The position numbers were made by a program, and so were the translations under genes. The notes below the pieces were generated by a model, which was not told the origin of the DNA, made no database searches, and saw nothing but the letters and a program-made list of their open reading frames with translations. Shown here in pieces: positions 3,264-7,413 of a DNA stretch of 61,031 bases; within the stretch, counting starts at the first letter, position 1; each line of letters starts with the position of its first letter. The stretch is from a virus (lineage: Duplodnaviria > Heunggongvirae > Uroviricota > Caudoviricetes): the IMG/VR virus record IMGVR_UViG_3300018411_000017. The stretch is one strand, 5' to 3'.

Positions 3264-3815
3264 ATGCTTATTTCTAATTATTCAACTATTCGTCCCAATG
3301 AACTTGGGACAAGAACCGTCGAGGATTTTTCTAAGTTTTTAGGTGCAAAACCACATCGTTTAGGTGTTGTTGCAAGACAAAATCCCGATTTAACAACTTC
3401 GTTTTTAACGGACGCATTGATGAACATTTATGACGTACCGAGTAAAAACAAATTTCAATCAGTTAACTCATTCGTGATTGAATGGGAAATTGAGCAAAGC
3501 TTTATTAAACGTATTGAATTTGCGTCTACTCCTACCTCTTCTGGTAAGTATGGTGCTCCGGTATCGTTTGTTTTTAAAGAAGCTTATTTTGGTAAATATG
3601 ATACTTTCAGAATCGAGAAAACTCGCCAGCAAGGTATTATAGTTTCCAATCCAAATAGAGTTAGAGATAATGCCTTTGAATATCAGGTTCAGCTTGTTAC
3701 AAACAACGCTGACGAAGAGTTCGACCTGACAGGATGTGCCACTGGTGATAAAGTTCGCTGGATTGGTAATGCCCATCCTGAAATGAGTGAGGAAGGCAAT
3801 GTCAAAAATCAGAGT
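3264..3815 (+). CDS. Major capsid protein, exon 1 (184 codons; spliced product about 468 aa)
   Basis: crAss-type MCP N-terminus (TRTVEDFSKFLGAKPHRLG...IEWEIE...RIEF). Ends at U3815 (..CAGAGT), which pairs U.G with the intron guide GCTC at 3827-3830. Confidence 0.9.
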
Positions 3816-5158
3816 AAAGAAATATTGCTCCTTGCAGCTTAAAGCTGTTCGAAAAAGTTTTTTAATTGCTGGAAAATCCTATAAGTTTTATGAATTTATT
3901 TATAGGACAATCAGCAGCCAAGCTCAAGAGTGTACAAACATTTTAATGTAGTACTTGAGAAGGTTCAACGACTATCCCGGAAGGGAGTACATCTTTAAAT
4001 AGATGGAAAAGGAAACTAACTTAAAAAAGTATAAAATGAAATACATTGTTTATCAGACAATCAATTTAGTAAATAACAATATCTATATCGGAGTTCATGG
4101 GTGTGAAAACCCTGATATTTTTGATGGATATATAGGATGTGGAGTCGTAATAACAAATCCATCTTCTTATAACAAGCCTCAAACAACATTCCAATATGCA
4201 GTAAAAAAATATGGTACTTCAAATTTTAGAAGAACAATATTAAACATATTTGACACGTCAGAAGAAGCATATTCTCTTGAAAAGCAAATAGTAAACAAAG
4301 CTTTTATTAAAAGAAAAGATGTTTATAATGAAAAAGAGGGAGGGCTCTGTGGAAGTTCTTATAGTGTTAAAATAAATCAGTTTAATAAAAAAGGTGAATT
4401 CTTAAAAGAATGGAATTCCATAATTGAAGCTGCGGACTTTTATAATATAAGTCATACTGCTATACATAATGCTTATAAATATAAAAGTTGTTGTAAAAAT
4501 TTCTTTTGGTCTAAAGAGAAAAGTATTAATATTGATGAATACACATATAAAACTGACTCGAATCCAGTTATATGTTATCAATATAATTTAAGTGGGAAAT
4601 TAGTTAATACTTATAATTCTATAATAGAAGCTTCAAAAGAGAATAACACAACTGCTCCTCAAATTAGAAGAGCTATTTATGGTGGATATAGAGTTGGCGA
4701 TTATTACTATTCTTCTAAAATATATGAAAACTATACTGGTCAATCAAAAGTTTCATTAAAAAAACAACCAATATATATTTATACATTAAATGGAGAATTT
4801 GTTACTAAATTGAAAAATTCAGAAGAAATATATAATTTCTTCAATATTAAATCAACAGGAGTTGTTACTACTGCAATAAGGAATAAAAAACCTTATAAAG
4901 AATATCAGATTTCTTTAGAAAAACTAGATTCTATGCCTGAAGTAATAAATAAAAGAAACATACCAAAGAAAGTTGGTCGATACTCTTTAACTGGAGATTT
5001 ATTAGAAATGTTTGATAGTGCTACTAAAGCATGTGAAAAATATGGTAAAGTAGTTCAAAAAGCACTTAAAGGCCAACAAAAACAATGTAAAGGATTTATA
5101 TTTAAGTATATAAGTTAATGATATAGTCTACTCCTATTAGTAATAATAGGTATTATGG
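3816..5158 (+). mobile_element. Group I intron (IA2-like) 1 in MCP gene, 1343 nt
   Basis: P AATTGCTGGAAA, Q AATCAGCAGC, R GTTCAACGACTA, S ATGATATAGTCT. P7 is GACTA 3970-3974 / TAGTC 5124-5128; P7.1 TCCC-GGAA-GGGA; P8 TAACTTA/TAAGTTA; P9 CCTATTA-GTAA-TAATAGG. The guide ATATTGCTC (3822-3830) pairs GAGT|AATAT. Ends in G5158; the splice is in frame (QS|NMEIHR). Confidence 0.92.
4036..5118 (+). CDS. Intron-encoded GIY-YIG (Seg-like) homing endonuclease with NUMOD1-like repeats
   Basis: MKYIVYQTINLVNNNIYIGVH..FDGYIGCG N-terminus and repeated QF/Y..G.F..W.SI.EA units; lies in the P8 loop. ATG 4036 is preferred over 4003, which overlaps core RNA and lacks a counterpart in HEG2. Confidence 0.85.
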   Translation: MKYIVYQTINLVNNNIYIGVHGCENPDIFDGYIGCGVVITNPSSYNKPQTTFQYAVKKYGTSNFRRTILNIFDTSEEAYSLEKQIVNKAFIKRKDVYNEKEGGLCGSSYSVKINQFNKKGEFLKEWNSIIEAADFYNISHTAIHNAYKYKSCCKNFFWSKEKSINIDEYTYKTDSNPVICYQYNLSGKLVNTYNSIIEASKENNTTAPQIRRAIYGGYRVGDYYYSSKIYENYTGQSKVSLKKQPIYIYTLNGEFVTKLKNSEEIYNFFNIKSTGVVTTAIRNKKPYKEYQISLEKLDSMPEVINKRNIPKKVGRYSLTGDLLEMFDSATKACEKYGKVVQKALKGQQKQCKGFIFKYIS

Positions 5159-5419
5159 AATATGGAAATTCATAGAAATTATATCACTCGTCATCGTGCT
5201 GATATAGAATTTTCTTCTGATTTCGAAGCTCTTGAAGATACTTATATCTCTCTTGGAAAAAATGATTCAGACACTGGTACAGTTTATAAAATGAACAAAA
5301 AAGAACAGCAAGTTCTTGAATCGTTTATGATTGGTAGAAACCAGATGAATCTTATGTCGAAATGCAATGTAGACAAGAATGGAAAAGCCAGGAACTACGA
5401 TCCTGCAACAAATAGACCT
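5159..5419 (+). CDS. Major capsid protein, exon 2 (87 codons)
   Basis: NMEIHRNYITRHRADIEFS...DPATNRP, in frame with exon 1 after splicing. Ends at U5419 (GACCT), pairing with guide GGGTC 5453-5457. Confidence 0.88.
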
Positions 5420-6819
5420 AGAAAATTTAAGTTGTCAGCAGCTTAATACAATGGGTCGCATAACAGTGATGTTATGAACAATAGATTTCTCTGAATTGCT
5501 GGGAACTCTTAAGTGAAAACATAAGACAATCAGCAGCGAAGCATTGGAAAAGACAAGCTAATAAGTAGTCCCAATGAACGTTCAACGACTAGCCGATAGG
5601 CGTACACCCGAGTGGGTGGAAGTGGAGAATAACTTATAAAATATTTAAAAAAAATGAAATATATTGTATATTTGACCACCAATAAAATAAACAATAAGAT
5701 TTATATTGGTGTCCATAAAACTGAAATTGTTGAATTTGATGATTATTTGGGATGTGGTGCTTTTGCTAATTCTCCAAAAACATACAATAAAGGCAAAACT
5801 CCTTTTCATTCAGCAATATTAAAATACGGTCCAAAAAACTTTTACAGAACAACATTAAAAGAGTTTGATAATAAAAGTGATGCTTTATCTCTAGAAAGAG
5901 AGCTTGTTAATGAAGACTTTATTAAAAGAGTAGATACATATAATATCTGCTTGGGAGGAGGCGACCCACCATTATTATCAAAAAAAATATATCAATATGA
6001 TATTAATGGAAATTTTATAAAAAAATGGGATTCCATAAAGTCTATAACAACTTTTTACAACTGTAATAAAGATAGAATTACAATGGTTATTCATGATAGA
6101 AGGTCTTTCAAAAATTGCTTTTGGAGTTATGAACATTTAGATAACATTGACTTGTCTAATTATAAAATAAGCTTTCATGAAGGGACTATAAAACAATTTT
6201 CTAAATATGGAGTTTTACTTAATGAATTTAATTCATTAGAAGATATTTCTATTAAATTGGATGTTGATAAAAGAAGAGTGTCTAATGCTATTTGCGACGG
6301 AAGACTTTTGATGGACTGTTTTTTTACAAAAAATGATGATATAGATATTTTAATGGCTAATAAAAATAATAGGCAATTAAACTTGAAGAAAAAAATTTAT
6401 AGATACTCAATAGATGGAATATTTGAAAAAGAATATGATACTATGGAAAGTGCTATGAAGGAATTAAAAATAAAATTTAGTTTAATGAGCAGGTCATTAA
6501 AAAATAATGGTATAATAAAAGGGTATAGATGGAGCTTTGATAAAAAAGAAAAATTAGATGTCAAATCTAAAAACATTAAAGCAACCCCAATAGACCAATA
6601 TTCAATAAATGGTGAATTTGTAAAATCATGGAATACAATGTATGAATGTAGGAAGGAGTTTCCGTCTCTTTTAAAAGTATTGAAAGGGGATATTAAACAA
6701 ACAAAGGGATTCGTTTTTAAATATAAAGAAGTTAAAGATATAGTCTAAACTTATATGAAAATATAAGAAGTTTTATAAAAACTGATTAGCAGGTAACGTG
6801 GCTAATTTAATATTAATTA
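5420..6819 (+). mobile_element. Group I intron (IA2-like) 2 in MCP gene, 1400 nt, apparently ending in A
   Basis: P AATTGCTGGGAA, Q AATCAGCAGC, R GTTCAACGACTA, S AAGATATAGTCT. P2 CATAACA-GTGA-TGTTATG; P7 5587-5591 / 6741-6745; P7.1 GCC-GATA-GGC; P7.2 CACCC-GAGT-GGGTG; P9 CTTATAT-GAAA-ATATAAG. The guide ACAATGGGTC pairs GACCT|ATTGT. The 3' boundary is inferred from P10 and reading frame. Confidence 0.85.
5654..6748 (+). CDS. Intron-encoded GIY-YIG (Seg-like) homing endonuclease with NUMOD1-like repeats
   Basis: MKYIVYLTTNKINNKIYIGVH..FDDYLGCG; repeated IYQY..NGNFIKKWDSI-type units; ORF ends within the S/P7 element (KDIV*). Confidence 0.85.
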   Translation: MKYIVYLTTNKINNKIYIGVHKTEIVEFDDYLGCGAFANSPKTYNKGKTPFHSAILKYGPKNFYRTTLKEFDNKSDALSLERELVNEDFIKRVDTYNICLGGGDPPLLSKKIYQYDINGNFIKKWDSIKSITTFYNCNKDRITMVIHDRRSFKNCFWSYEHLDNIDLSNYKISFHEGTIKQFSKYGVLLNEFNSLEDISIKLDVDKRRVSNAICDGRLLMDCFFTKNDDIDILMANKNNRQLNLKKKIYRYSIDGIFEKEYDTMESAMKELKIKFSLMSRSLKNNGIIKGYRWSFDKKEKLDVKSKNIKATPIDQYSINGEFVKSWNTMYECRKEFPSLLKVLKGDIKQTKGFVFKYKEVKDIV

Positions 6820-7413
6820 ATTGTTATTGGGGATGGAGTTATCCCTCAATTGGAAAGATTTGCTGACAAATATGCTTATTCAAAAATGTCTACAGATATT
6901 TTTGATACAATGCTTTCTTCTATGAGACAAAAATCTAAGAAATCAATGGGTAACAAATACGTATTTGTTGCTAACGAAATGCTTTGGGATGATATCCAAA
7001 AAGCTCTTAGAGATTACCTCAAGAATTGGAAGACAAACGGAACTACTTTCTTCTCTAAAGCAGGTGGTAAAGATATTGAAATTGGAGGCTTCTTTGAAAC
7101 TTATAACATGGGTGGAAACCAGTTAACCTTTATGGTTGATAAATCTCTGTCTTTGGAGTATGATCAAAAACCTTATGGCTTCTGTCTTGACCTTACCGCT
7201 GATTTAGCATCAGGAAAACCAGCGATGGCTTCTTATGCTTTAGCAGGAAAAGAATACAAACAGCACATCCTTCGTGGTGTTGGTTCTAGTTCTGTAGAAG
7301 TTAGCTCTGTTGTAGCTGCTTCTAGAATTATAAATATTGGATATTCTTCTGTGTGTGTATTCTCACCGCATAAGAGTTATATAATTGAAGGAAACAAACC
7401 AAATAAATATTAA
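6820..7413 (+). CDS. Major capsid protein, exon 3 (197 codons plus stop)
   Basis: IVIGDGVIPQLERFADKYAYSK...YVFVANEMLWDDIQ...GGFFETY is a crAss MCP-like C-terminus. An in-frame TAA at 6814-6816 limits how far upstream the exon can start. Confidence 0.85.
   Translation: MVIGDGVIPQLERFADKYAYSKMSTDIFDTMLSSMRQKSKKSMGNKYVFVANEMLWDDIQKALRDYLKNWKTNGTTFFSKAGGKDIEIGGFFETYNMGGNQLTFMVDKSLSLEYDQKPYGFCLDLTADLASGKPAMASYALAGKEYKQHILRGVGSSSVEVSSVVAASRIINIGYSSVCVFSPHKSYIIEGNKPNKY

Follow-up and report, generated by a model that had tools for sequence, protein, structure and literature searches.

Ala-Ala-stop endings of read-through products in phage group I introns: a possible templated counterpart of the ssrA tag

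Introduction

Most bacterial group I introns carry an in-frame stop codon just past the 5' junction, which keeps ribosomes out of the catalytic core (PMC3073962), and the stop of the td intron has been put to this use in engineered switches (PMC8565351). So far, such early stops have been explained in bacterial group I introns only as a means of keeping ribosomes off the ribozyme core. In this study two group I introns were analyzed that split the gene of a crAss-like major capsid protein in a 61,031-nucleotide stretch of viral DNA (Caudoviricetes; IMG/VR record IMGVR_UViG_3300018411_000017), this whole stretch being called the window hereafter, together with a large number of relatives of these introns. 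In both introns, translation running on from the exon ends in two alanines followed by a stop codon. If the codons before such a stop are selected for an Ala-Ala C-terminus, the intron would also govern the fate of the truncated protein.

C-terminal alanines are part of known signals for proteolysis. Recognition of the ssrA tag by ClpX involves tag residues L9, A10 and A11, and the tag reading frame of Escherichia coli ends in GCA GCU UAA UAA, which contains the same 9-mer, GCAGCTTAA, that closes both read-through tails described here. Alanine tails added by RqcH likewise serve as a degron. Both the binding of the C-terminal residues of the ssrA tag by ClpX (PMC8138137) and the addition of polyalanine tails by RqcH (PMC8373112) are documented in the literature.

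Results and Discussion

Read-through tails of the two capsid introns

Translation from the first capsid exon into intron 1 passes through AAAGAAATATTGCTCCTTGCAGCTTAA and gives the tail KEILLLAA before the stop, in frame with the upstream exon open reading frame (ORF) at 3264-3842. Translation from the second exon into intron 2 passes through AGAAAATTTAAGTTGTCAGCAGCTTAA and gives RKFKLSAA before the stop, in frame with the ORF at 5162-5446. The 5' junctions are fixed by the intron-less 473-amino acid homologue L001 (MT835470), in which the exon sequences continue as ...YQS/NIERHRGYIT and ...GRP/IYIGDGIIPQ (the slash marks the junction), and hence both tails occupy the 27 nucleotides that follow the splice site. 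An earlier note on this DNA, made from the sequence alone, had placed both stops at this distance and both in the same 9-mer, GCAGCTTAA; the sequence, the ORFs and the homology-fixed junctions confirm this.

Within the window GCAGCTTAA occurs only at 3834 and 5438. The expected number is 0.57 and 13 of 100 shuffled sequences contain at least two copies, so that the count in the window alone proves nothing. An Ala-Ala ending beyond chance is shown at the level of the intron family and not from the window alone. Both tails end in a free, ssrA-like C-terminal Ala-Ala, preceded at position -3 by leucine in intron 1 and by serine in intron 2. Compared with the family consensus presented below, the tail of intron 1 (...LLLAA) fits well and that of intron 2 (...LSAA) less well.

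Ala-Ala endings in the intron family

Relatives were defined as introns with the same P4/P4' core (AATTGCTGG...ACAATCAGCAGC) and were collected from viral, metagenome and genome collections, with their 5' ends ignored in the sampling. For each relative the long upstream ORF running into the intron was taken, which gave 148 distinct, confidently framed cases with the window excluded. The earlier note had proposed that, if the tails act in degradation, Ala-Ala-stop should be enriched among such read-through products, and our analysis found this enrichment. Ala-Ala was the most frequent C-terminal dipeptide (13 of 148); of the 374 stops that lie out of frame in these 5' regions, Ala-Ala codons precede one (Fisher 5.5e-7). 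For comparison, Ala-Ala makes up 0.39% of internal dipeptides in the host ORFs and 1.2% of the endings of ordinary ORFs at the same loci. Overall, the two codons before the read-through stop are Ala-Ala far more often than any control predicts.

Analysis of amino acids by position in the 148 read-through products revealed 23 alanines at -1 and 26 at -2, with 7-17 (mean about 10) at each position from -3 to -12. The Ala-Ala dipeptide ending at -1 is represented by 13 cases, and at other offsets by 0-3. The signal is limited to the very C-terminus. Leucine reaches its highest count at -3, and acidic residues are underrepresented at -2 and -3. No enrichment was seen for other GC-rich codon pairs preceding stops (eight in frame and 14 out of frame). 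The excess is specific to Ala-Ala and not to GC-rich codons; leucine or another hydrophobic residue accompanies it at -3, and acidic residues are avoided. Since the Ala-Ala excess is tied to the in-frame stop, it acts through translation.

Reading frame was analyzed further in a complete scan of IMG/VR for the core with GCNGCNTAA (GCNGCN-stop) 18-48 nucleotides upstream, which gave 92 loci. At most of these loci by far, the motif is where a long upstream ORF meets its first in-frame stop. GCNGCN-stop was the first in-frame stop in 26 host-protein clusters, was not in four, and was mixed in three (binomial against one third, 2e-9); the empirical baseline is that 28% of stops in these 5' regions are the in-frame one. 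Retention of the motif out of frame in relatives inserted in other frames, which the earlier note had named as an outcome that would speak against a role of the peptide, did not occur. In total, Ala-Ala tails were found in 29 clusters, 26 of them purely in frame and three mixed. Among 49 distinct Ala-Ala tails, leucine is the predominant residue at -3 (17 tails, 35%), followed by isoleucine (8), alanine (5), valine (4) and phenylalanine (3), with tryptophan, tyrosine, cysteine and methionine also present. About 90% of the tails are hydrophobic at this position, and only five of the 49 carry a polar or basic residue.

The Ala codons fall in varied RNA elements; they are part of the 5' strand of P2 in some introns, of the guide itself in others, and of the loop of P1 in others again. 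The automatic P1 finder mis-assigned some cases, including intron 2 of the window, and its use here is limited to illustrating this variety of context. All four wobble bases of the Ala codons and all three stop codons occur among the tails. At individual insertion sites (PRFW/, PAILS.IWV and the capsid site GRP/K, which is the site of intron 2), tail sequence, tail length and hairpin register vary and Ala-Ala-stop stays. The host genes code for assembling or oligomeric proteins, namely capsid proteins of five Pfam families, a portal protein, DnaB-like helicases and large subunits of RNR; an AAA_24 ATPase is a further host protein.

Several further observations were made in this family. A recurrent tail ending in WVAAA was found in crAss-like capsid genes (L200, L211 and L140; ...PAILSNIWVAAA before the stop); WVAAA is reportedly the non-polar C-terminal pentapeptide of classic E. 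coli studies of C-terminal degradation signals. Tandem stops follow the tails of several introns at the capsid GRP/ site, as TAATAA in L128, L115 and L156 and as TGATAA in L003. In a member of the exon 1 family from the genome contigs (L370, host cluster 1) the capsid read-through stops early (...SEEGYSKF before the stop), and an in-frame GCAGCTTAA lies 27 nucleotides beyond this stop, as if a newer stop had pre-empted an Ala-Ala tail. Two contigs of Lachnospiraceae metagenome-assembled genomes (L323, L374 and L387 on CAJOGN010000001.1; CALAEX010000129.1/CALAEX010000100.1) hold up to eight copies of this core in a span of 8 kb, which is an unusual density for group I introns.

RNA structure around the tails

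Folding placed the two copies of the 9-mer in different RNA contexts, as the earlier note had described. In intron 1, P1 is GAGUAA/UUGCUC with a U-G wobble at the 5' splice site (U3815-G3827). The guide GCUC occupies 3827-3830, and the P2 hairpin (3834-3848) has the 9-mer as its 5' strand and loop. In intron 2, P1 is GACCU/GGGUC with the guide GGGUC at 5453-5457 and the wobble U5419-G5453; P10 pairs ACAAU (5448-5452) with 6820-6824, P2 lies at 5459-5476, and the 9-mer precedes the guide as the 3' strand of a P1a hairpin (about 5427-5446) within the P1 loop. Both helices at the splice sites of intron 2 covary with L003, a relative whose intron lies at the same site (P1, GACCU/GGGUC vs GUCCU/GGGAC; P10, ACAAU/AUUGU vs GGAAU/AUUCC). 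The accompanying claim that a shared RNA-structural role is unlikely to explain the 9-mer stands as far as the roles differ between the two introns, but each copy does have a helical role of its own.

An alternative P1 for intron 2, drawn by Infernal as GCAGCUUAA/AUGGGUCGC, would put the splice site behind position 5443, so that the tail would belong to the exon. It was ruled out by intron-less homologues that read GRP/IYIG, by joined contigs and by the covariation of P1 and P10 with L003.

Proposed function and alternative explanations

The most economical reading of these results, to which we give about an even chance, is that the tails are hard-wired, templated ssrA-like C-terminal degrons on the products of unspliced mRNA. 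A ribosome moving along the capsid pre-mRNA ahead of splicing passes from the exon into the intron. On the unspliced pre-mRNA it halts at the first in-frame stop, eight codons into the intron. The free hydrophobic-Ala-Ala terminus would mimic the end of the ssrA tag (...LAA), and the truncated capsid fragment would be handed to a ClpXP-type protease of the host. Fragments of an assembling protein would then neither build up nor poison assembly, which would lower the cost of carrying the intron. The wider claim, to which we lean slightly less than halfway, is that mobile group I introns of phages and bacteria have repeatedly evolved a minimal templated ssrA mimic (hydrophobic-Ala-Ala-stop) that feeds unspliced products to host ClpXP. 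The degron proposed in the earlier note is partly supported, in that Ala-Ala-stop is enriched and locked in frame with a hydrophobic residue at -3, and is weakened by the small share of introns that end this way and by L003, which ends in LSA.

A number of observations weigh against a degron. Only about 5-9% of the intron family ends in Ala-Ala, and hence the degron, if it is one, is optional. Common ancestry was allowed for only by clustering the host proteins, and the counts are corrected for it only in part; with each cluster of host proteins given a weight, the Ala-Ala count is 7.6 of 143, and Ala-Ala tails are present in nine of the 143 clusters sampled without regard to the tail. In the same tail-blind samples, the host cluster of exon 1 (cluster 1, the site of intron 1) shows Ala-Ala in three of 15 members and that of exon 2 (cluster 3, the site of intron 2) in none of four. 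The closest orthologue of intron 2, L003, ends in KLLSA followed by TGA TAA and keeps the P1a hairpin; in this pair the RNA structure appears to be more tightly conserved than the Ala-Ala ending. Serine at -3, as in the tail of intron 2, occurs in none of the 49 other Ala-Ala tails. A second core family (AATTGCGGG) has two Ala-Ala endings among 36, both from one site, which are too few independent cases. Tail-blind members among introns with a CCGU/GCGG P1 mostly stop within the P1 loop. Both 9-mers of the window are helix strands, so that RNA constraints act on them too.

One argument considered in this context was that the CCGU/GCGG lineage holds Ala-Ala in frame by a loop length matched to codon phase. 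It was dropped, since the stops of the tail-blind members within the P1 loop show that the argument was ascertainment-biased.

The strongest alternative, in our view unlikely although a serious contender, is that the endings are a by-product of stop placement. Selection would act only for an early in-frame stop beside GC-rich helix strands (P2, P1a or the guide) that happen to read GCN GCN, and Ala-Ala would have no function. The helical position of both window 9-mers agrees with this explanation, as do compensatory changes in P2 hairpins of the form GCNGC-GUAA-GCNGC, the first Ala codon being the guide itself in the GCGG-guide lineage, the retention of the hairpin and not of Ala-Ala in L003, and the non-Ala-Ala endings of most members of the family. 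However, an RNA feature predicts that about two thirds of the motifs lie out of frame, against the 26 clusters in frame, four not and three mixed. The tail-blind samples likewise split 13 in frame to one out, whereas other GC-rich pairs before stops (8 to 14) stay near the 28% baseline. The hydrophobic preference at -3 and the depletion of acidic residues are also left unexplained by helices that differ from case to case.

A second alternative, which we rate as improbable, is that Ala-Ala before UAA (with tRNA-Ala in the P and E sites) favors fast or accurate termination and release, shielding the core and clearing P1 for folding. Such an effect would be translational, as is a signal tied to the in-frame stop, and it is consistent with the predominance of TAA (102 of 148 read-through stops), with the tandem stops behind several tails (L128, L115, L156 and L003) and with the known harm done to splicing by ribosome entry (PMC3073962). 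Against it, ordinary ORF ends at the same loci are Ala-Ala in only 1.2% of cases, leucine at -3 is not predicted, and Ala-Ala tails occur also with TAG and TGA. Effects of the nascent peptide on termination, moreover, are reported to involve basic residues at -2 and not alanine. The last alternative, coincidence in the window, in which the two paralogous introns came to have the same self-complementary 9-mer (AGCU, UUAA) through chance or sequence exchange and the family trend reflects a few successful lineages, agrees with the non-significant 9-mer count, with the core shared by the two introns and with the origin of several Ala-Ala tails in a small number of families of host proteins (such as cluster 0, which has 15 members), but is very unlikely given that the 9-mers are not positionally homologous in an alignment of the two introns and that Ala-Ala tails occur in nine of 143 tail-blind clusters and 29 overall, across different P1 sequences, insertion sites and structural positions.

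If the degron reading is true, the tails would act as a safeguard that makes introns less costly in genes for capsid, portal, helicase and RNR proteins, and would represent a novel level of accommodation between intron and host. It would bear on the tolerance of introns in highly expressed, self-assembling proteins such as capsids. It would also supply intron-based switches, such as tools built on the td intron, with minimal degron tails tuned by nature, and provide a simple sequence mark by which the 5' ends of introns could be annotated.

Structure of the interrupted capsid gene

Three ORFs of the window (3264-3842, 5162-5446 and 6850-7413) each encode part of a single crAss-like major capsid protein, with weak matches to Crass_capsid. 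The gene is split by two group I introns, and each intervening stretch encodes one GIY-YIG/NUMOD homing-endonuclease ORF (Table 1). Both introns have the P3-P8 core and match RF00028 of Rfam above its gathering score of 50 (3806-4038, 53.5 bits; 5434-5682, 52.5 bits), and a 3' piece of intron 1 is matched at 5116-5148. These matches were obtained only with a 3.5-kb search; a search with the whole window, in gathering or E-value mode, misses both introns owing to its filters. Additional introns were looked for in the 61-kb window and none was found beyond the two in the capsid gene.

Table 1. Coordinates of the capsid exons, introns, read-through tails and associated features in the window.
Feature	Coordinates	Strand	Evidence
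Major capsid protein exon 1, 184 codons	3264..3815	+	ORF; weak Crass_capsid match; L001/L002 homology ends exactly at residue 184; L003 continues QS/NMEVHR
Read-through tail 1, KEILLLAA + TAA	3816..3842	+	In frame with exon 1; absent from intron-less homologues
Group I intron 1, 1343 nt, terminal G = G5158	3816..5158	+	RF00028; fold; exon junction from L001, L003 and joined contigs
GCAGCTTAA copy 1, P2 5' strand + loop	3834..3842	+	Sequence search; fold
GIY-YIG-type homing endonuclease ORF, intron 1	4003..5118	+	NUMOD1 and I-HmuI_NUMOD-like domains; N-terminus parallels intron 2 ORF
Capsid exon 2, 87 codons	5159..5419	+	Alignment to L001 and L003; contig joints
Read-through tail 2, RKFKLSAA + TAA	5420..5446	+	In frame with exon 2; absent from intron-less L001 (GRP/IYIG)
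Group I intron 2, 1400 nt, last base A6819	5420..6819	+	RF00028; fold; P1/P10 covariation with L003; L001 homology; joints
GCAGCTTAA copy 2, P1a hairpin 3' strand, upstream of guide	5438..5446	+	Sequence search; fold
GIY-YIG homing endonuclease ORF, intron 2	5654..6748	+	GIY-YIG and NUMOD1 domains
Capsid exon 3, IVIGDGVIPQ... to stop	6820..7413	+	L001 IYIGDGIIPQ homology; Crass_capsid; joined contigs ...CCT-AT(C)-GTTATTGGG

L003 is a relative with 80% identity that is without intron 1 (QS/NMEVHR) and has intron 2 at the same site. Exon-exon joints in contigs of public wastewater runs coincide with the homology-fixed junctions. The run data consist of contigs only, and the exon-joining contigs occur in both RNA-library and DNA runs; those in RNA libraries cannot be told from intron-less DNA alleles, which also exist, and hence they are no proof of splicing and no claim of expression is made.

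Wastewater populations (runs X12, X14, X15 and X17) contain intron-less capsid alleles, with joints near 3815/5159 and 5419/6820. Mini-introns without endonuclease ORFs are also present in wastewater, with joints from 3844 to 5112 and from 5640 to 6729 and TGGT between. These alleles and mini-introns indicate that both introns of the window and their ORFs are polymorphic. The first ATG of the endonuclease ORF of intron 1 falls in the P3'/P8 region of the ribozyme, and the protein likely starts at the second ATG, at 4036 (MKYIVY...), which matches the start of the ORF in intron 2.

The 3' end of intron 2

Intron 1 ends in the terminal guanosine (omega G) of group I introns (G5158), whereas intron 2 ends in A6819. 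The 3' splice site of intron 2 was placed at 6819/6820 (...AATATTAATTA/ATTGTT) by homology (IVIG vs IYIG), by the P10 pairing and by joined contigs. No G is present within 6802-6822 of the window, and the in-frame TAA at 6814-6816 leaves no room for a 3' splice site farther upstream. Relatives L003 (...TATG/ATT) and L128 (...AACG/ATT) carry G at the terminal position of this intron, and the same 3' end as in the window is present in an independent wastewater run. Either intron 2 ligates after A, or this allele splices poorly.

Comparison with known systems

No account of an intron-encoded degron in a bacterium or phage was found in the literature searched for introns in connection with the ssrA tag, ClpXP and degrons, an absence that does not prove novelty. 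The earlier note had stated that none was known for phage group I introns, in agreement with our search, in which only the in-frame stop was found as a known feature.

In the td intron of T4 and in other bacterial and phage group I introns, as in the introns of this study, a stop a few codons past the 5' splice site ends translation of unspliced mRNA before the ribozyme core (PMC3073962, PMC8565351). The literature treats the stop only, whereas in the introns of this study the two codons before it depart from random, specifying Ala-Ala behind a hydrophobic residue at -3. The td stop is described at intron positions +1 to +3, so that the td intron encodes no tail.

The ssrA/tmRNA tag (...ALAA) and natural LAA-like substrates of ClpX share with the intron tails a free C-terminal hydrophobic-Ala-Ala, and the ssrA tag marks products of incomplete translation. 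Unlike the ssrA tag, the intron tail is specified in cis by the mRNA and made by ordinary translation and termination; neither a tmRNA nor an SspB-binding part nor a stalled ribosome is involved. The poly-alanine tails of RqcH/RqcP resemble the intron tails in placing C-terminal alanines on an unfinished protein (PMC8373112), but the RqcH tail is untemplated and added on the split 50S subunit, whereas the intron tail is templated.

In yeast HAC1 (Hac1u), the 5' end of the intron encodes a short C-terminal tail that has been proposed to destroy the protein made from unspliced mRNA (PMC8002603). This intron differs in being eukaryotic, spliced by Ire1 and non-catalytic, and neither the sequence of its tail nor the route of degradation is related to what is proposed here. 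The proposed HAC1 intron-encoded degron is the nearest analogue of the Ala-Ala tails in this intron family.

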